Source of the DNA: an uncultured Gammaproteobacteria bacterium
Lineage (GTDB): Bacteria > Patescibacteriota > Microgenomatia > UBA12405
Direction of reading: 5' to 3'
DNA length: 64,000 nucleotides
NCBI GenBank assembly: GCA_964544275.1
Contig: CAZIZX010000002.1
Coordinates: 96,100 to 160,099 of the forward strand
Positions within the stretch are counted from its first letter, which is position 1; every line of letters starts with the position of its first letter. Made by a program: the position numbers and the translations under genes. Shown one piece after another: positions 10,825 through 18,239 of this stretch. Below the pieces are notes generated by a model that searched no databases, was not told where the DNA came from, and saw only the letters and a program-made list of their open reading frames with translations.

Positions 10825-11153
10825 GATTGCAGTTTGGCTTCAAGGTTTATTCTATTTTGGGATATTATTTGACGGCACTGAATGGATTCAGGCTGGACAC
10901 CGGCGATGGCACAAAAACAGTCAGTTCCGCACCTGTCACAGTTTATTTCAACCTGAGGGGAATCTATTCTGGTAAATCCCTGATGAGGAAGGCTGCCTGA
11001 TTTGGTAAACGACTTAAAGTTTTCGGGACGATTAGTAGCCATAGTATAAATGAGTTAATTGGTAATTAGACCAATGATAAAGTGGGCGTAGGGGAAATGT
11101 AAGGAATATCTTGTGAATTTATTATGGGGTATAATCAAAAGTTGGGGTGGGTC

Positions 11154-13430
11154 TTACTCGATGCTGGTACGGCGACTATCGGTTAGAGGGGTAATGTTTT
11201 TTGTTTGAGGTGGTTTTGGAGTTAGTTTTGGTGTTGAATTATTGGGAGAAAGTGAATTTTGTTTTGGTTTGCCCCAACGTTGGCGGGAGATTTGGATAAG
11301 TTTTTGGCGGGCCTGGTTTTTGCAGGAAAGAGGTGGCAGGGTGACGGCATAAAACGGATTAGTGGTTTCAGAGTCGATTGAAAGTTTGTTGATAACTTGA
11401 TAGCGGCCGATTTTGACTAAGTCTTCGGGTGGAAATTGTGGTCCAAATTCTTTGCTTAAGATAAAGGCGTCCTGGTTGCCGACAACGAAAGAGACCATGG
11501 AGCCGACGTTGCCGAAAATAGCGTCCTGAATGGGGCGTTCAAGCTGGGCCATGTATTGATTGGCAACTATCAAATTTAATTTAAATTTGCGGGCTTCGGA
11601 GAGGATTTTGATAAACGAGGTGGTGGCGAAATTTTGAAATTCGTCAACATACAGGTAGAAATCGGACCTGGCCTCGGCTTCCTGGAAAACCCGGTTCATA
11701 GCTGAAAGTTGGATTTGGGTAATTAACATGGCACCAAGAAGAGCGGAGTTGTCTTCGCCTAATTTGCCGGTAGACAGATCGGCAATAAGAATTTTTTTCT
11801 CGTCCATAATTTGCTGGATATTGATTCTGGACTTAGGATGATTGATGGTGTTTCGGATGTTGCTGGAGGCAATAAACTGACCGACTTTGTTTAAAATGGG
11901 GGCAATAGCTTCGTTTTGGAATTTGGGATCCATACGGTTGAATTCATTGATCCAGAAATTTTTGAGAGTTTGGTTTCGGAGTTTGTTGATTACTTTGTCT
12001 CGGAAATTTTTGTTGGTGAGGATTTCAACGATGTCGACCAGGGTGGTATCGGGAGTGTTGACCAAAGTTAAGACGGCGTTTCTTAAAATGTGTTCAAGTC
12101 GGGGGCCCCAAGAGACTTCACCGTAGATTTTTTTGAAAATGGAGATAACGCCTGAAGCGACAAGTTCTTTTTGAGATTCATTTTGGGCTTCGAGAACATT
12201 GAGGGGATAGACGTATTCAGGATCAGCAGGATTGAAATAACAACAATCGTTAATACGATGAGAAGGTATGTAGTCAAGGATGTTATTGCATAAATCGCCG
12301 TGAGGATCGATAACAGCAACTCCACGGCCTTTGCGAATGTCGTCAATGGCCATGTTGGAAATTAAAGTAGTCTTGCCGGTACCGGACTTGCCGATAATAT
12401 ACATATGGCGACGGCGGTCTTCGCCTTGTTTGATGCCAAAGATGGAATCTTTGTTTCGAAACTCAGTTTTGGCAAAAAAGGTTATTTCTTTTTTTTGTTC
12501 TTCGGTAGTATCGTCGGCGACAGGAAGGTTTTCGGGTGGGTCGGAAAACAAATTTTTGCCCCAGGCGATGTTGGGCAGTTTGGTAAGTTTATTGGGAAAG
12601 TGCCAGAGAGCGGAGACTTCTTCGGTGTTGAGAATTTGGGATTTGAGTTTGGTAGAAATTTTACGATTTATGATGCAGTCGGGGAGTTTGTTGCGATTAA
12701 AAAGGTTAGGAGTAAAGGTCTTGATGGAGTTACCGCGGGGAGAGGTAAAGGCTCCGAAAGAGGAGGAAACTGAAGCAATCAGGCTAGGATTGTTAGAAGC
12801 GAGATTGATTTGAGCCAGGATACCGGGGAATTGAATTTTCTGTTCAAATATTGAACGGTCGGGATGAGCTTGGCGTAAGCCTTTTTCTTTGTCAATGACA
12901 ATACCGTTTTGGATAATATCCATTATTGAACTTTGCCAGTTTTTGGAGGCAGGACCGAGGATTATTTGATAGACAAAAAAGTCAGTAGTGCTATTTGATC
13001 GGGAAAGGGGGGCTAGGACGGAAACAAGAGGATCGGTATCGCGGAAATCACGGGCGGTTTTGAGGGGATAATTGTAGGATTTGGAGAGTCCGATTTGGGA
13101 GAAGTTGAGTAACTTGGGATTCTCCAGATCGGTAAAATAGTCCAGGGTATCTTTGGTGATGGCAGAAGGATATTGGGCTAGGATTTGGGATCGGACATAT
13201 TCCATGTTGTCGGTTGGCGCGACGACATAGAAATGAATTTGACCGTGACTAAGTACAATCTCCAGGCTGGCGATGGTCTTTCTTTTACCGCTAAGGCGGT
13301 CAATAAGAGAGGTGGAGCCGGATTGGGAGAAGTTACTTAAAAGTGAGGACATGGCTTCGAGGGTAAATTCGTTTTCTTGAGGGAGGCGGATTTCCAGTAT
13401 TGACAGGTTATTTTTGACGGTGTGCGCCAT
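11154..13430 (-). CDS. VirD4/TraG/TraD-like coupling-type ATPase (FtsK-HerA superfamily), soluble
   Basis: Walker A IIGKSGTGKTT followed about 20 aa later by DPHGD, and Walker B YLYVDEFQNF. No TM segments. Long N-terminal non-ATPase region. Confidence 0.55.
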   Translation of the reverse strand: MAHTVKNNLSILEIRLPQENEFTLEAMSSLLSNFSQSGSTSLIDRLSGKRKTIASLEIVLSHGQIHFYVVAPTDNMEYVRSQILAQYPSAITKDTLDYFTDLENPKLLNFSQIGLSKSYNYPLKTARDFRDTDPLVSVLAPLSRSNSTTDFFVYQIILGPASKNWQSSIMDIIQNGIVIDKEKGLRQAHPDRSIFEQKIQFPGILAQINLASNNPSLIASVSSSFGAFTSPRGNSIKTFTPNLFNRNKLPDCIINRKISTKLKSQILNTEEVSALWHFPNKLTKLPNIAWGKNLFSDPPENLPVADDTTEEQKKEITFFAKTEFRNKDSIFGIKQGEDRRRHMYIIGKSGTGKTTLISNMAIDDIRKGRGVAVIDPHGDLCNNILDYIPSHRINDCCYFNPADPEYVYPLNVLEAQNESQKELVASGVISIFKKIYGEVSWGPRLEHILRNAVLTLVNTPDTTLVDIVEILTNKNFRDKVINKLRNQTLKNFWINEFNRMDPKFQNEAIAPILNKVGQFIASSNIRNTINHPKSRINIQQIMDEKKILIADLSTGKLGEDNSALLGAMLITQIQLSAMNRVFQEAEARSDFYLYVDEFQNFATTSFIKILSEARKFKLNLIVANQYMAQLERPIQDAIFGNVGSMVSFVVGNQDAFILSKEFGPQFPPEDLVKIGRYQVINKLSIDSETTNPFYAVTLPPLSCKNQARQKLIQISRQRWGKPKQNSLSPNNSTPKLTPKPPQTKNITPLTDSRRTSIE

Positions 13431-13688
13431 GTGTATATTTTACATTATTTAAAATGGGGTAGAGAAACTAAGTCAGTAATAACAAACGAGGACTTACTTG
13501 TTGCAAAACAATACATATTGGTGTAGTATCGCATATGGAGCTAGTAAGACTTATAGTCTTGGATTGGCAAAGAAAATGTTTTGGAGATAAAAAGGATTTC
13601 TTGCGGCTGAAATTGGGCGATGACCTTAGAAAACAAACACTTGATATTATTATATTGAGTGATAATATAAGTCTATAATATTTTGAAG

Positions 13689-13704
13689 GATATCAAAAGA
13701 TATC
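13689..13704. promoter_or_regulatory. GATATC-N4-GATATC direct repeat of palindromic hexamers in a divergent intergenic region (candidate operator)
   Basis: Seen directly in sequence, about 260 nt upstream of the VirD4-like start and 23 nt upstream of conserved motif copy 1. Confidence 0.25.
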
Positions 13705-13726
13705 AGCATCTTTTTTGTATTCTTCA

Positions 13727-13800
13727 GAAAGCACTTTGACAACCCGAAGGATTGGGATCTAAAGAGGACGTAAAAATTTGTGTTTTCTTTGGATCCCAAT
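13727..13800 (+). promoter_or_regulatory. conserved ~20-nt motif (GAAAGCACTTTGACAACCCG) followed by a long perfect hairpin (13751-13800); copy 1
   Basis: The same motif recurs at 14296-14318, followed by a different-sequence long hairpin. It contains TTGACA, but no conserved -10 follows. Confidence 0.4.
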
Positions 13801-13879
13801 AAAGAAAGAAGGTGATGCAAATTGATTGCGGGCTGAGTTTTTATCCCTCAAAAAACAACAGCGCAAAAAGGAGAGACTG

Positions 13880-13996
13880 ATGTCTGGGAAGTGCAAATCC
13901 TGTGTGTACAAAAACAACTGTGTCCGACGGAAGAAGTGCCCCGGCCCTGTTGTCAAGGGTCAGAGGTCGAGAAAAGTCTCTTCCGATGGGCGATAG
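13880..13996 (+). CDS. small Cys-rich basic peptide (38 aa, MSGKCKSCVYKNNCVRRKKCPGPVVKGQRSRKVSSDGR)
   Basis: Strong RBS (AAAGGAG, 7 nt upstream of the ATG). Lies in an atypically GC-rich segment. Followed by hairpin 14091-14120 and a T-run. Coding status uncertain. Confidence 0.3.
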   Translation: MSGKCKSCVYKNNCVRRKKCPGPVVKGQRSRKVSSDGR

Positions 13997-14090
13997 ATCG
14001 CCAGAGAAGACGCCCAAGCGGCGAGCGGGACGACCACGGAGACCTAAACCGAGGCCGAAGACTAACTGCCGTTAGGGCAAAATGTGGTGT

Positions 14091-14160
14091 GGGAGCCAAA
14101 ACAAAGCCGTTTTGGCTCCCTGCCCTGGACCTGGTGCATTGTTTATTTTTTGCTTTTTTG
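14091..14160 (+). terminator. putative intrinsic terminator (GGGAGCCAAAAC...GTTTTGGCTCCC hairpin with a downstream T-rich tract)
   Basis: Perfect 12-bp stem. The T-rich tract starts about 20 nt downstream, which is atypical spacing. Confidence 0.3.
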
Positions 14161-14295
14161 GTGTTGAGTACACATTTTTCTTTTCTTTCGGGTTGTCTTT
14201 TATTGAAATTTAGTTTTAAGGGTGACTTTGAGACTAGTTTTCAATAAAATATAAGTTTTTGGAGCTAAAGACATAAAGCTTGTCAATTTAGCTTT

Positions 14296-14374
14296 GAAAA
14301 CAGCACTTTGACAACCCGGGGAACGATAGGGACCAAGAGAGACAGTTTTTTAAACTGTTTGTCTTGGTCCCTAT
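14296..14374 (+). promoter_or_regulatory. conserved motif copy 2 (GAAAACAGCACTTTGACAACCCG) plus long hairpin (14325-14374)
   Basis: Second copy of the motif. The hairpin is about 21 bp with a different sequence from copy 1, so the structure is conserved while the sequence is not. Confidence 0.4.
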
Positions 14375-14486
14375 TTGGATCAAGAAAGGAACAGGGTGAT
14401 GCCACCGTAGTCATGCGGCAATGATGCCAAGAAATTCTAGTTTATCCGCCGAACTTGAACTCCTACCCTCAAGGAGAAAACACAAC

Positions 14487-14684
14487 ATGCTTCCGGCTAA
14501 GAAAGAAAGAGTTGTTGACGATGACGTCGTCAGCACAGAAGAATATCGACGATCTCGCCGTCCTTCTCGGCAGCGTTCGGAAACGTATTATTGTATTGAC
14601 TCGAGCGGGGTTGTTCTTACTGCTCGGGAAGTGGCCGAGGCCCGAAAGGGTAACGGTCAAGAGCCGGTGAAGTTGGACGGCTAG
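14487..14684 (+). CDS. small basic hypothetical protein (65 aa)
   Basis: RBS AAGGAG 10 nt upstream. Arg codons are mostly CGN, unlike neighbouring genes. Followed by a strong terminator. Confidence 0.3.
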   Translation: MLPAKKERVVDDDVVSTEEYRRSRRPSRQRSETYYCIDSSGVVLTAREVAEARKGNGQEPVKLDG

Positions 14685-14694
14685 AGTTCGAGAA

Positions 14695-14790
14695 GAAGGG
14701 GGCGCTGCAAGCATTTTTGCAAACAGCGCCTCCGTATTTGTGGTGGTTTTTCGTTTTTGTTTTGTTCGTTTTTTCTTTTTTGTTTCCCGG
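14695..14790 (+). terminator. intrinsic terminator (GGGGGCGCTG...CAGCGCCTCC hairpin followed by a long T-rich run)
   Basis: 10-bp GC-rich stem followed by TTTTTCGTTTTTGTTTTGTTCGTTTTTTCTTTTTTG. Confidence 0.55.
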
Positions 14791-14848
14791 GTTGTTTTTA
14801 TATATAGTATTGCTTGTTTATAAAAATTTATTAAAATTTAAATAAGCT

Positions 14849-15064
14849 ATGAGTTGGGGGTCGAAAGAAAAACCGAAGGGTTTGTATTCGAATGGTACTT
14901 TTGATGGATTTAGGCCGTGCAGAATTGACGGAAAACCGGGTGTTTTGTTGAATGGGGTAGAAATGGCAAATTTAGCAGCGTTAGGATACGATGTAAAGCC
15001 GATAGAAATCAGGGTGGCTGAAAGAAAAAAACCAAGACATAATGGGCGAGGGTCATTGGATTAA
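14849..15064 (+). CDS. hypothetical small protein (71 aa)
   Basis: ORF with a plausible upstream TTGCTT-N16-TAAAAT promoter and a very short leader. No recognisable family. Confidence 0.3.
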   Translation: MSWGSKEKPKGLYSNGTFDGFRPCRIDGKPGVLLNGVEMANLAALGYDVKPIEIRVAERKKPRHNGRGSLD

Positions 15065-15166
15065 GTTTGTGATATAATTTCGAGGTTAAAGTTATTCATT
15101 TATTTTGGGCGTTAGTCCTGGGTAGTTCCTACCCCGCCTGTTTTAGAATTTAATAAGGACAAAATT

Positions 15167-16087
15167 ATGGAAAAAAAGAAGGTAATCAGTAAAACCGTCA
15201 ATCGAACCGGTAAAAGTTTGGTTAAAAAGGCATTGGTAGTTAATTCCCGCAAGCAGTCAAGTATCAATGCAGAACAGGTGAAGAGATTGAATGAAGAAGT
15301 AAAGGCAAAAAAAGAAAAGGTGGTGCAAGGTAGAAAATATCAGGAGAACTTAAAACCGGAAAAGAATGTTAAGGCAGATACCAATAAAAAACCGGATAAG
15401 AAATATGAACTGACGGTTGACATGAAAGATATGCTGAAGGCCGGAGCACATTTAGGTCACAAAGTGTCCAAAACTCATCCGAAAGCCAGGGACTATATAT
15501 ATACTTCGAAGGACGGAATCGAAATATTGGATCTGACCAGCTCTATTAAAGAATTCGAGAAAGCCTGTAATTTTGTTTACAACGCTAAAAGAAACGGTAA
15601 GCAGGTTCTGATGGTAGGTACCAAAAGACAGGCTAGGGAAGTAGTTAAAAGAGTGGCGATGGATGCCGGGGCTGCTTATGTAACTGACAGGTGGCTGGGG
15701 GGGACTATTACTAATTGGGAGGAAATCAGAAAGAATATTAAGAAATTAAAAGATTTGCGGGCCGGAATTGAAAATGGTACTTTTACTGAGCTGACCAAAA
15801 AAGAATTGTCGGATATGCAAAAAGAAATTGGTCGATTGGAAAGGAATGTTGGTGGTTTGGTCAACTTGGACAAATTGTTTGACATTTTGTTTGTGGTTGA
15901 TGCTGGTTTTGAGAAGACGGCTGTTCGGGAAGCCAGACTTCGAGGTGTTTCGGTGGTAGCTATGATTGATACCGATAGTAATCCGGACAAGATTGATTAT
16001 CCGATTCCAGCCAATGACGACAGCGTCAAAAGCGTTAATATGGTAGTTGAAGAAATTGGTAAGGCGATAAAGGCTGCCGGAGTTTAA
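15167..16087 (+). CDS. rpsB: 30S ribosomal protein S2 with an ~85 aa Lys-rich N-terminal extension
   Basis: The S2 core starts at MKDMLKAGAHLGHK (15422). Good RBS (AAGGA) only at the 15167 start. S2 motifs include DRWLGGTITNW. Confidence 0.85.
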   Translation: MEKKKVISKTVNRTGKSLVKKALVVNSRKQSSINAEQVKRLNEEVKAKKEKVVQGRKYQENLKPEKNVKADTNKKPDKKYELTVDMKDMLKAGAHLGHKVSKTHPKARDYIYTSKDGIEILDLTSSIKEFEKACNFVYNAKRNGKQVLMVGTKRQAREVVKRVAMDAGAAYVTDRWLGGTITNWEEIRKNIKKLKDLRAGIENGTFTELTKKELSDMQKEIGRLERNVGGLVNLDKLFDILFVVDAGFEKTAVREARLRGVSVVAMIDTDSNPDKIDYPIPANDDSVKSVNMVVEEIGKAIKAAGV

Positions 16088-16107
16088 AAGTTAAGTATTT
16101 TTTAAAT

Positions 16108-16566
16108 ATGGACCAAAAACAAATTATTGAATTAGTTAAAAAAATTAGAAGTGAGACGAGTTTGGGGATCATGGAAATAAAAGCGGCCTTGGAAGAAGCC
16201 AACGGTGATGAAAAGAGAGCTAGAGAGATATTGAAAGAGAGGGGATTCAAAAAAGCCGAAAGTAAGAAAGAACGGGAAACCCGACAGGGAAGAGTGGTTA
16301 CTTATACCCATACTACCGGGAAAATTGGGGTAATGATTGAAATCTTGTGTGAGACTGATTTTGTAGCTAAGAACGAAGAGTTTATGGCTTTGAGCCGGGA
16401 TATGGCTTTGCAGGTGGCGGCGATGAATCCGGAATCGGTAGAGAAATTGATGGAGCAGGAGTTCATTAAAGATCCGACTCAAAAAGTTGGTGATTTAGTT
16501 CAGGTCTTGATCGCTAAGTTGGGTGAGAATATTAAAGTGGGTCGAATGGCAAGGTTTGAAATTTAG
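16108..16566 (+). CDS. tsf: elongation factor Ts (short form)
   Basis: N-terminal UBA-like segment (LVKKIRSETSLGIMEIKAALEEANGD), the TDFVAKNEEF motif, and conserved rpsB-tsf synteny. Confidence 0.85.
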   Translation: MDQKQIIELVKKIRSETSLGIMEIKAALEEANGDEKRAREILKERGFKKAESKKERETRQGRVVTYTHTTGKIGVMIEILCETDFVAKNEEFMALSRDMALQVAAMNPESVEKLMEQEFIKDPTQKVGDLVQVLIAKLGENIKVGRMARFEI

Positions 16567-16593
16567 GCAATAAGTAGAGGTTGTTTCTGGATG

Positions 16594-16620
16594 AAGCCCC
16601 GCTTGGCGGGGCTTTTTTGT
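16594..16620 (+). terminator. intrinsic terminator after tsf
   Basis: AAGCCCCGCTTGGCGGGGCTTTTTTGT hairpin with a T-run. Confidence 0.7.
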
Positions 16621-16633
16621 TATACTAGGCTAT

Positions 16634-17185
16634 ATGCTAAACACAATCGCAATAAGGTCGAGAATGGATAAAATTATGGAGATATTTGGAGAGGACATCG
16701 GATCGATAAGGACGGGAAGGGCGACACCGGGTTTGATTGAAAATGTTTTGGTGTCGGTATATGGCGGGCAGAAGATGAGGCTGATGGAGTTGGGGACGAT
16801 TTTGGTACCGGATGTGCGGACTTTGACTTTTCAACCTTGGGACGTGTCGGTATTGAAAGAGGTGAGTAATGGAATTGCTGTAGCCAATATTGGAATGAAT
16901 CCGGTAGTAGATGGGCAGTTGATAAGGATATCTTTGCCGGTGATGACAACGGAGCAAAGGGAAGACTATATTAAACTTTTGGGACGGAAGTTAGAAGGGG
17001 CCAGGGGAATGGTTCGGGATGTTCGGGGGGATTTCCGTAAAGATTTGCAGGATGCCAAGCAAGAGAAAACGATATCTGAGGATGAATATAAAAGAGATGA
17101 GACCGAACTGCAAAAAATTAACGATGAGTATATGTTAAAACTGGAAAAATTAGCTCAAAAGAAAGAGGAAGAAATCAGAGGATAG
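16634..17185 (+). CDS. frr: ribosome recycling factor
   Basis: The IRTGRATPGLIENV segment and the coiled-coil body are typical of RRF. The start could instead be the Met at 16664. Confidence 0.85.
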   Translation: MLNTIAIRSRMDKIMEIFGEDIGSIRTGRATPGLIENVLVSVYGGQKMRLMELGTILVPDVRTLTFQPWDVSVLKEVSNGIAVANIGMNPVVDGQLIRISLPVMTTEQREDYIKLLGRKLEGARGMVRDVRGDFRKDLQDAKQEKTISEDEYKRDETELQKINDEYMLKLEKLAQKKEEEIRG

Positions 17186-17189
17186 AGTT

Positions 17190-18239
17190 ATGAACTTAAT
17201 AATATTTATTGTGGCGTTATCTATATTAGTTTTGGTTCATGAGCTGGGGCATTATATTGCAGCCGTCAAAACGAAAGTGAAGGTGGAGGAATTTGGGTTG
17301 GGGCTGCCGCCGAGAATTACAGGAAAGAAAATCGGAGAAACGATTTTTAGTCTAAACTGGTTGCCGATTGGGGGGTTTTGTCGGTTGTACGGAGAGGATG
17401 GTGGGGGTAAAGGAGGCCGGGCGTTTAACAACAAAAATCCGTGGCAGAAATTGATAATCGTTTTGGGTGGGGTGCTGATGAACGTAGTTCTGGCAGTTTT
17501 GGTGTTTACGGTGGTTTATGCCATACTGGGAGTTCCTCAGAAGACAGATAGGGTGAAAATTATTGGGGTAGCAGCGGAATCTCCGGCGGAGGAAGTGGGG
17601 TTAGAAGAGGGGAATTGGATAAAAGAAGTGGCGGGAGAGCCAATTTCCGAACCGGAACAGCTGACTCAAAGGGTGAATGAATTTAAAGGAGAAACGGTTG
17701 AATTACTGGTGGAAAAAGATGGTGAGGAAGAAGTGGTGGGGGTTTTGGTCCGGGAGAGTCCGCCCGAGGGTGAAGGGGGTATGGGGATAGCTATATCCAA
17801 CACGGAGATGGTAAAGGTGCCCTGGTACCAGTTTTATAAGGGAGTGGTGGCGGGTTTTGAGGAGGCCTATTTTTGGGGTGAAATAATTGTGGGTGGAGTG
17901 GCCAAAATGATTGGTAGTTTGCTGAGCGGGCAAAGAGTAGAAGATGTGAGTGGGCCAATAGGAATGTTTCAGGCCACCAGTGCAATTCGGGAGAATCAGG
18001 GGATGCTGGCCGTGGTTCATTTCTTTGGAGTGGTTTCGGTTAATTTAGCGGTGGTAAATATTTTGCCTTTTCCGGCATTGGATGGAGGCAGGATTATGTT
18101 CGTGTTGTATGAGCTAATTACCAGAAGAAAACCGAACCAAAAAGTAGAGTCAATTATTAATAGTGTTGGGATGGTGGTTTTGCTGGGATTGATATTTTTG
18201 ATCACTGCCGGGGATATTGCCAGATTGGTTCGAAATTAG
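17190..18239 (+). CDS. rseP: RIP metalloprotease RseP (site-2 protease with PDZ)
   Basis: HELGHY zinc motif in TM1, a central PDZ-like region, and the C-terminal LDGG motif. Confidence 0.8.
   Translation: MNLIIFIVALSILVLVHELGHYIAAVKTKVKVEEFGLGLPPRITGKKIGETIFSLNWLPIGGFCRLYGEDGGGKGGRAFNNKNPWQKLIIVLGGVLMNVVLAVLVFTVVYAILGVPQKTDRVKIIGVAAESPAEEVGLEEGNWIKEVAGEPISEPEQLTQRVNEFKGETVELLVEKDGEEEVVGVLVRESPPEGEGGMGIAISNTEMVKVPWYQFYKGVVAGFEEAYFWGEIIVGGVAKMIGSLLSGQRVEDVSGPIGMFQATSAIRENQGMLAVVHFFGVVSVNLAVVNILPFPALDGGRIMFVLYELITRRKPNQKVESIINSVGMVVLLGLIFLITAGDIARLVRN

Follow-up and report, generated by a model that had tools for sequence, protein, structure and literature searches.

The 64,000-nt stretch of DNA analysed here (the window; positions 96,100 to 160,099 of contig CAZIZX010000002.1) contains two units of ~470-500 nt, located at 13730-14197 and 14302-14795, in or next to the region 13689-14790. 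This region is part of the gap that separates rpsB (15167-16087) from a T4CP/VirD4-like gene on the minus strand (11154-13430). Each unit is probably a transcription unit for small proteins that is built like a precursor of 16S rRNA. Both units follow a common plan, in which an exact 17-mer is followed by a 23-bp hairpin, a small open reading frame (ORF) led by a Shine-Dalgarno (SD) sequence, and a GC hairpin. A preliminary description of this DNA had reported two cassettes with a shared upstream motif, a long hairpin, an SD-led small ORF, and a GC stem, and the presence of these cassettes was confirmed. The units were also said to be richer in GC than their surroundings and to use CGN codons for Arg. 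This is indeed the case, as the GC content peaks at 0.57 and 0.525 in the units as compared with 0.32-0.34 in the flanks and 0.428 in the window, and CGN accounts for 8 of the 9 Arg codons of the 65-aa ORF as compared with 45% in long ORFs.

The 17-mer resembles the boxA of 16S rRNA leaders

The 17-mer, AGCACTTTGACAACCCG, occurs exactly twice in the window; ~0.14 matches are expected even with three mismatches allowed. Its core GCACUUUG together with the following ACAA resembles boxA, which reads UGCUCUUUAACAA in the rrn operons of E. coli. The core was predicted to be unpaired in all minimum-free-energy folds, and a promoter-like site is located ~60 nt upstream. When compared with the gamma-proteobacterial boxA consensus GYTCTTTAANA (PMC5725501), the window motif GCACTTTGACA (window-type boxA sequences are also written GCACUUUGACAA, AGCACUUUGACAA, and AGCACUUUGACAAC) matched at 8 of 10 positions, retaining G, C5, and UUU, and deviated by A at position 3 and G at position 8. 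The motif of a homologous unit in the metagenomic locus L115, GTTCTTTAACA, matched the same consensus at 10 of 10 positions.

Since the consensus of boxA varies from phylum to phylum, the motif is properly tested against rRNA leaders of its own lineage. Three Microgenomates 16S loci, which had originally been fetched for other reasons, were used: L133 and L134 contain complete 16S genes (Rfam RF00177; 1390 and 1401 bits, respectively), and L158 contains a 3'-truncated one (1271 bits). Their leaders carry the motifs GTTCTTTGACAATC (L133), GTACTTTGAAAATC (L134), and GCACTTTAACAATC (L158). The L134 motif has both deviations of the window motif, and the L158 motif has the same GCAC as the window. 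A weight matrix made from the units alone scored the 16S motifs of L133 and L134 at 15.8 bits, and a score of at least 15.8 bits was reached at 19 of 1.0 million positions, mostly in the units themselves. The leader-trailer helix of L133 (TTTGACAATCAAGAAGTGGTAGGAAT / ATTCCTATCACTTCTTGGTTGTCAAA) is perfectly paired over 26 bp and begins within boxA, at boxA+4; its trailer strand is located ~80 nt past the 3' end of 16S. The same arrangement at boxA+4, with two mismatches, was found in L134. The helix of the small-gene units starts at boxA+4 to +10, which agrees with the register in the two complete 16S genes, and the sequence continues in a similar way, with ..ACAAYC-AAGAAG.. in the 16S leaders and ..ACAAYCCGAAGRA.. 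in the units. Judged by its sequence, the 17-mer is a boxA-like element. While the preliminary description recognized no known family here, the motif is boxA-like, and the bracket around each unit copies the leader and trailer of pre-16S rRNA in related bacteria. It had also raised the question of whether the motif recurs in relatives, which it does.

Several observations were made on the surroundings of these 16S genes. In L133 and L134 (2342-3803 and 1977-3434, respectively; minus strand), the 16S gene directly follows the T4CP-like gene and converges with it. In L134, 16S is preceded by a gene for a TrmH/SpoU methyltransferase; in L158, this gene is nearby, with a gene for an RRM-domain protein between it and 16S. 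Contigs with the TrmH/SpoU methylase gene were often short, as expected if assemblies break at rRNA genes, and two of three look-ups of the TrmH gene showed no adjacent 16S gene. Look-ups of the genes at the ends of the window, which served to extend it, reached no rRNA operon.

Outside these relatives, an exact-motif scan of viral contigs gave 15 matches, all of them chance matches and none followed by a hairpin or GGTGATG. A gapped-motif scan of 185,579 species genomes gave 74 matches, all by chance except for one possibly related leader, and the window's own genome was not matched. The possibly related leader is in L088 (Candidatus Staskawiczbacteria MHOR01000031.1; reverse strand, ~830-900), where a TTGACA-17-TACAAT promoter is followed by the hairpin GGGTGAATATTGTGTTTACCC, then CCCTTTGACAACCCG, an SD sequence, and an ORF for a small membrane protein. 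A closing arm was not found for this leader, which may represent the use of boxA in an mRNA leader of a member of Parcubacteria.

A leader-trailer helix closes each unit

Each unit ends with CGGGTTGT, which is located 60-75 nt past the GC hairpin and pairs with the 3' half of the 17-mer. The resulting closing helix has 14 pairs on the plus strand, including one G-U pair (Table 1). The inner halves of the helix differ in sequence between units 1 and 2 in a compensating fashion. Among 27 long hairpins of the window, only those of the two units are flanked by such closing arms, besides low-complexity matches at the AT-rich hairpin between the units. The closing helix was present in the minimum-free-energy folds of all six units found first, and the folding z-scores of the two window units were -6.0 and -7.3. 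In these folds of both window units, the purine-rich ..AAGAAGGUG pairs with the trailer, which is rich in pyrimidines, and the helix is thereby lengthened beyond the hairpin.

The pairing across relatives was evaluated with scripts for weight matrices and for base pairing. In an alignment of eight units, 91.4% of the cells of the closing helix were paired, a percentage that is favoured by the way in which the 3' arms were found, that is, by complementarity. The search does not favour double changes, and 11 of 16 pairs were changed on both sides. None of 500 shuffles reached the observed pairing or covariation score, and slid registers were 41-58% paired. In 15 units, the helix was 9-22 bp long and started at boxA+4 to +10.

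The local hairpins changed in the same manner. When the window was compared with its closest relative L093, 6 of the 19 pairs of hairpin 1 were changed, none was broken, and 2 were compensated on both sides; in hairpin 2, 11 of 20 pairs were changed and 7 were compensated on both sides. The long hairpins contain 2-7 G-U pairs each and were 4-23 kcal/mol more stable on the plus strand in 13 of 15 units; the difference was 11 kcal/mol for that of unit 1. Two of four single-nucleotide polymorphisms (SNPs) between strains are in stems and both preserve the pairing: 14342 A>G in the long hairpin of unit 2 converts A-U to G-U, and 14731 T>C in the GC hairpin of unit 2 converts G-U to G-C. The long-range helix is real, and the structures act as plus-strand RNA. 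The strong RNA-structure constraint that had been considered as one explanation of the base composition is thereby supported, on the plus strand.

The long hairpins of the two units had been described as unrelated in sequence. They share ATWGGGAYC..AAGAG and a U-rich 3' arm, UUUGUYUU, and by this resemblance they are diverged homologues. The GC stems had been taken as terminators. They are not directly followed by a U run, they were not called by a terminator scan (for the GC hairpin of unit 1, there was no call on the plus strand), and the units continue for 60-75 nt beyond them. Since the units end there with CGGGTTGT, which pairs with the 5' motif, transcription probably has to run past the GC hairpins.

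The window units probably encode small hydrophilic proteins

Unit 1 contains two small ORFs, P1 and P2, and unit 2 contains one of 65 aa. The sequence AAGGAG is located 6-10 nt upstream of the ATG of P1 (13880) and of the 65-aa ORF (14487). When P1 was compared with its counterpart in L093, 15 codons were identical, 7 differed synonymously, and 13 differed non-synonymously, and none of the four Cys was lost; for P2, the respective counts were 12, 8, and 3. By this measure P1 and P2 are under purifying selection, and the substitution pattern makes it very probable that both are translated. The small ORFs of unit 1 are real, and the preliminary inventory, in which P1 was correctly given as a 38-aa ORF with four Cys, had overlooked the second ORF of this unit.

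The 65-aa ORF is known only from identical copies. At its position, L093 has an unrelated Cys-rich ORF of 68 aa, so that the cargo of unit 2 is either swapped or diverging rapidly while the bracket is retained. The 65-aa peptide had been called basic, but its net charge is only about +1. The products of P1, P2, and the 65-aa ORF are all hydrophilic. A search of 1.84 billion representative proteins with P1 gave one spurious match and no relative, and searches of Pfam, NCBIfam, PADLOC, and PHROGs with the unit peptides gave only sub-threshold matches to generic zinc ribbons. Across 15 units, the cargo consists of small Zn-ribbon or Cys-rich proteins and very basic peptides, except for two AT-rich units of L098 that encode membrane proteins, and in every unit the SD sequence is canonical and correctly spaced. 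The composition of P1 and P2 suggests nucleic-acid binding. An upstream ORF starting from the ATG inside GGTGATGC was also considered. In unit 1 this frame runs for 21 codons, in unit 2 for 3, and it was rejected as it lacks conservation.

The units occupy an accessory hot spot next to a conserved chromosomal gene

The T4CP-like protein has thousands of homologues, and those that are ~75% identical are labelled Candidatus Shapirobacteria or Microgenomates. The order of the neighbouring genes is fixed: mreB, PBP2, dprA, and topA flank the gene to one side, rpsB-tsf-frr to the other. T4CP homologues are common chromosomal genes in the candidate phyla radiation (CPR). Because the gene is a conserved chromosomal one in fixed synteny, it shows no sign of a degraded mobile element, and the suggestion that the cassettes are cargo of such an element tied to the VirD4-like ATPase is not upheld. 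In 57 metagenomic loci, the T4CP-rpsB gap varies from 206 to 3245 nt and contains 0 to 3 units; the units are absent from many relatives and are accessory. The gap is an accessory hot spot.

Both units are also present in the closest relative, L093, whose T4CP is 85% identical. Units of the same plan, one or two each, were found in the more distant loci L109, L115, L098, L108, L113, L114, L141, L142, L149, and L150. Between the window and L093, the block 13674-13720, which contains the leader hairpin of unit 1, is near-invariant, the purine-rich stretch of unit 1 has the counterpart GGAAGGAGGTGATCC, and the AT-rich hairpin between the units is maintained through a compensated change, while the stretch from the long hairpin to the SD sequence is poorly conserved. 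The inter-unit hairpin may act as a terminator, as a processing site, or in promoter occlusion.

The gap has other contents in some relatives. Reading of the translations identified BrnT/BrnA-like (antitoxin twice) and HicB/HicA-like pairs in the L109 gap (reverse strand, ~1100-2810 of the region upstream of the T4CP gene). In L096 and L098, the gap contains AT-rich units of the same plan (promoter, GGAACTTTAAAAACC-type motif, long hairpin, and closing helix) that encode multi-span membrane proteins, and in L098 a promoter plus leader of ~110 nt is duplicated exactly before its two units.

Table 1. Predicted features of the two units, in window coordinates
Feature	Positions	Strand	Remarks
Unit 1, sigma-70-like promoter (TTGATA, 16 nt, TG-TAATAT)	13641-13668	+	predicted; kept in L093 as TTGATA-16-TACAAT
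Unit 1, leader hairpin upstream of boxA, 19 pairs	13679-13731	+	in the position of boxB in rrn leaders
Unit 1, boxA-like motif AGCACTTTGACAACCCG	13730-13746	+	8-nt core GCACUUUG predicted single-stranded; matches boxA of Microgenomates 16S leaders
Unit 1, leader strand of leader-trailer helix, GACAACCCGAAGGA	13738-13751	+	overlaps 3' half of boxA; covariation
Unit 1, long leader hairpin, 23 pairs	13751-13800	+	5 G-U pairs
Unit 1, purine-rich SD-like stretch AAAGAAAGAAGGTGATGC	13801-13818	+	predicted to lengthen the leader-trailer helix by pairing with the pyrimidine-rich trailer
Unit 1, ORF P1, 38 aa (MSGKCKSCVYKNNCVRRKKC...)	13880-13996	+	four Cys; SD AAGGAG at 13868-13873
Unit 1, ORF P2, 29 aa (MGDRSPEKTPKRRAGRPRRPKPRPKTNCR)	13986-14075	+	Arg/Pro-rich; overlaps the end of P1 in the +1 frame
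Unit 1, GC hairpin, 12-bp perfect stem	14091-14120	+	U/G-rich tract only ~20 nt later; kept in L093
Unit 1, trailer strand of leader-trailer helix, TCTTTCGGGTTGTC	14184-14197	+	
Inter-unit AT-rich hairpin, 27 pairs	14193-14254	+	overlaps the unit 1 trailer strand and the unit 2 promoter-like site
Unit 2, promoter-like site (GTGACT, 17 nt, TAAAAT)	14222-14250	+	weak match
Unit 2, leader hairpin	14255-14301	+	
Unit 2, boxA-like motif AGCACTTTGACAACCCG	14302-14318	+	
Unit 2, leader strand of leader-trailer helix, ACAACCCGGGGAAC	14311-14324	+	
Unit 2, long leader hairpin, 23 pairs	14325-14375	+	one G.G mismatch
Unit 2, purine-rich SD-like stretch CAAGAAAGGAACAGGGTGATGC	14381-14402	+	
Unit 2, 65-aa ORF	14487-14684	+	orphan, putative coding; SD AAGGAG at 14471-14476
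Unit 2, GC hairpin (GGGGGCGCTG...CAGCGCCTCC)	14698-14733	+	kept in L093
Unit 2, trailer strand of leader-trailer helix, GTTTCCCGGGTTGT	14782-14795	+	

Neighbouring elements

Additional conserved elements were observed around the units. The block 13498-13678, which contains a promoter-like sequence (TTGCAA..17..TAGTAT) and the start of a 47-aa ORF (MELVRLIVL...), is near-invariant between the window and L093, and the remainder of the ORF is divergent. This block, for which no family matches were obtained, could represent either an RNA element or a small gene without a leader. Between unit 2 and rpsB, a 71-aa ORF (14849-15064) without a Pfam, PADLOC, or PHROG family has as its counterpart in L093 a conserved 80-aa gene. 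In the rpsB leader (15066-15140), an extended -10 promoter, TGTGATATAAT, precedes a conserved hairpin, TCCTGGGTAGTTCCTACCC, which was present in all relatives examined, for example as ATCCTGGGTTAATTAATACCC in L096 and TCCTGGGAAATACCCAACGC in L109. This hairpin had no Rfam match at the gathering score; it may be an autoregulatory leader of S2.

From 11000 to 18000, the GC skew of the plus strand is strongly positive (0.1-0.6) independently of gene orientation, which resembles the strand compositional disparity that has reportedly been observed in one Microgenomates genome (PMC7143001). The contig L018 (Logan SRR27197518) corresponds to 13476-14795 of the window (1320 nt) and thus stops precisely where the trailer strand of unit 2 stops (14795), and the contig L017 starts at 13687, close to the predicted start of unit 1. 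These ends at the borders of the units could be a coincidence or could result from assembly breaks at the hairpins.

Alternative explanations

A long-distance helix that joins the 5' and 3' ends around SD-led small ORFs is also found in type I toxin-antitoxin (TA) loci such as hok/sok and aapA1/IsoA1, in which the fold-back helix of the mRNA ends keeps the toxin mRNA inert until 3' trimming, and the hairpins of the units would then be the targets of an antisense RNA. Such fold-back control is documented for aapA1 (PMC5416894). This reading would fit with the type II TA pairs (BrnT/BrnA-like and HicA/HicB-like) in the same hot spot of L109 and with the small transmembrane proteins of L098, whose units have the same bracket. 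However, the peptides of the window are hydrophilic and Cys- or Arg-rich instead of being membrane peptides or a hydrophobic toxin, and transmembrane cargo was observed only in the distant L098 units. No antisense gene or RNA is evident, the window scan gave no convincing promoter on the minus strand, the stems fold much worse on that strand, and the 5' arm, instead of forming the 5' end, is located ~55 nt past the predicted start. Moreover, the conserved single-stranded motif, which is the boxA of 16S leaders, is foreign to those systems and would be left unexplained. It is thus unlikely that the units are type I TA-like loci, and the earlier proposal of a toxin-antitoxin or bacteriocin-like pair is not borne out, as the peptides matched no PADLOC, Pfam, NCBIfam, or PHROG family. 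The ORFs might instead be incidental to large structured non-coding RNAs. In AT-rich genomes, structured RNAs are classically recognized as GC-rich islands between genes, and the GC peaks, the very low folding z-scores, and several covarying stems agree with this, as does the lack of homologues of the 65-aa ORF (among 5.8 billion proteins) and of P1 (among 1.8 billion representatives). On the other hand, a canonical SD sequence is present in every unit, small Zn-ribbon or basic ORFs recur in 15 units, the substitutions in P1 and especially P2 (8 synonymous versus 3) are biased toward synonymous ones, the hairpin-to-SD stretch is poorly conserved, and no Rfam family was matched. A purely non-coding role is quite unlikely on these grounds.

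The variable content and length of the gap in relatives (0 to 3 units, 206 to 3245 nt), the inverted repeats at both ends of each unit, and the replacement of the unit 2 ORF by a wholly different one in a relative of 85% identity with the flanks kept could all be due to cassettes that move as DNA, similar to miniature inverted-repeat transposable elements (MITEs) or integron cassettes, with the terminal inverted repeats as recombination sites. However, the arms covary such that the pairing but not the sequence is kept, G-U pairs occur on one strand only, and the inverted repeat does not include AGCACTTTG, which is the best-conserved part. There is no transposase or integrase nearby, the units lack attC core sites (GTTRRRY / RYYYAAC) and target-site duplications, and the viral and species-representative scans matched the motif only by chance, so that mobile cassettes appear very unlikely. 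It is still less probable that the units are ordinary small orphan genes without a link to Nus factors, in which the motif would serve as an operator in the DNA or as a -35 element and the stems would stabilize the mRNA or terminate transcription. The motif does contain TTGACA, and promoter-like and hairpin elements are plentiful in AT-rich intergenic DNA, but no -10 element is present at the proper spacing, homologous units read TTAACA or TTAAAA while the boxA positions are kept, and the motif recurs upstream of three 16S genes. Some further candidates were tried and set aside: an oriT/nic site beside an inverted repeat was rejected because of the restriction of G-U pairs to the plus strand, the presence of two copies, and the lack of a relaxase; attC was rejected for the lack of core sites; a retron msr/msd was rejected as no reverse transcriptase is nearby; and an RNase E site was dropped as too degenerate to test.

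Discussion

The units have a bracket like that of pre-rRNA but are not rRNA operons. No rRNA or other Rfam 15 family was found inside them, and at the gathering score the window contains only three tRNAs; at E <= 10, the best Rfam match in 13400-15200 had E = 0.053 and was a chance match to a hairpin. The published rrn layout consists of boxB, boxA, boxC, and a leader-trailer helix that is interrupted by leader helices and contains an RNase III site, for which a looping model with tethered boxA has been proposed (PMC10250234). The rrn antitermination complex contains NusA, B, E, G, SuhB, and S4. The units share with the rrn leader the predicted order of elements, which runs from the promoter through the leader hairpin and boxA to the leader strand, as well as the boxA sequence of Microgenomates 16S leaders, the start of the helix inside boxA in the same register, and the interruption of the helix by a leader hairpin. 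In addition, two tandem units of boxA plus helix mirror the 16S and 23S halves of an rrn operon. Unlike rrn operons, the units enclose 430-460 nt of small protein genes and no rRNA, have a shorter core helix (14-16 bp), and are accessory.

By analogy with rrn operons, we infer Nus-factor antitermination and RNase III processing of the units. Transcription would start at a sigma-70-type promoter and proceed through a short leader hairpin to the single-stranded boxA core GCACUUUG. The 3' half of boxA (GACAAC) and the next 8-10 nt form the leader strand, whose partner is 430-460 nt downstream at the end of the unit, and the 23-bp leader hairpin interrupts the helix formed by them. The body enclosed in this way consists of the SD-led genes for micro-proteins (P1 and P2 in unit 1; the 65-aa ORF in unit 2) and the GC hairpin. 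NusB-NusE (S10) would bind the nascent boxA and nucleate the Nus-factor antitermination complex, which would take the RNA polymerase past the GC hairpin/U-rich tract and Rho such that the trailer is made. As boxA would be tethered to the polymerase, the leader strand would be kept near the RNA exit channel and could pair with the emerging trailer. The resulting helix of ~25 bp and possibly the 23-bp hairpin would be substrates of an RNase III-type enzyme, and the cleavage would release a trimmed and stable mRNA.

Several points weigh against this interpretation. The core of the closing helix has only 14 bp and would reach ~25 bp only with the predicted extension past the hairpin, whereas more than 17 bp is critical for the 16S helix of E. 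coli (PMC10250234). Position 3 of the window motif is A instead of U, and the boxA match is with the 16S leaders of other Microgenomates lineages, not with that of this genome. The 65-aa ORF has no homologue besides itself among 5.8 billion proteins and thus offers no evidence of conservation. Finally, boxA in an mRNA leader can repress, as in suhB (PMC5725501), so that its effect in the units could have either sign.

BoxA outside rRNA operons has been reported in the 5' untranslated region (UTR) of suhB and other mRNA leaders (Baniulyte et al. 2017, PMC5725501) and in the leaders of CRISPR arrays (Stringer et al. 2020, PMC7665894), where it has been proposed to allow read-through against Rho and to loop the RNA in a way that helps its processing (PMC5725501, PMC7665894). 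As in the units, boxA is in these cases located in the leader of a long, poorly translated transcript other than rRNA; unlike in the units, no leader-trailer helix closes those transcripts, and the suhB boxA represses. In the literature that we searched, neither boxA in CPR bacteria nor protein-coding units inside a leader-trailer helix of the pre-rRNA type had been reported. The pL-nutL-N region of phage lambda comprises a promoter, boxA, a hairpin, a leader stem sensitive to RNase III, and the gene for a small Arg-rich protein. The units have a similar predicted series of elements, including a gene for a small Arg-rich protein, but in lambda boxA precedes boxB and no 5'-3' closure is formed. 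P1 and P2 have no similarity to lambda N.

A further step would be to regard the units as miniature 'pseudo-rRNA operons', in which the pre-16S bracket serves as a portable expression module at the hot spot and places lineage-specific micro-proteins of the Zn-ribbon and Arg/Lys-rich kinds under the Nus/RNase III regime of rRNA. These micro-proteins could be ribosomal or ribosome-assembly proteins that have escaped recognition, or N-like cofactors of antitermination that bind the RNA of the adjacent hairpin. We put this forward tentatively, as a rather doubtful extension. It is based on the Zn-ribbon or very basic cargo in 15 units, the location of the units directly upstream of rpsB-tsf-frr, and the exchange of cargo with the bracket kept.

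Both BoxA/Nus antitermination and leader-trailer helices are commonly assigned to the production of rRNA, with suhB and CRISPR arrays as boxA outliers. If the units are indeed built and expressed like precursor 16S rRNA, the 'polymerase as RNA chaperone' mechanism, in which the tethering of boxA unites distant strands, would also serve mRNAs, and the units would provide a small natural test system with a loop of ~450 nt as compared with 1.5-3 kb. They would also represent a source of unannotated CPR micro-proteins, the expression of which is perhaps tied to ribosome synthesis. The sequences collected here are a first set of boxA and leader-trailer sequences of Microgenomates and can be used to find more Nus-dependent transcripts.

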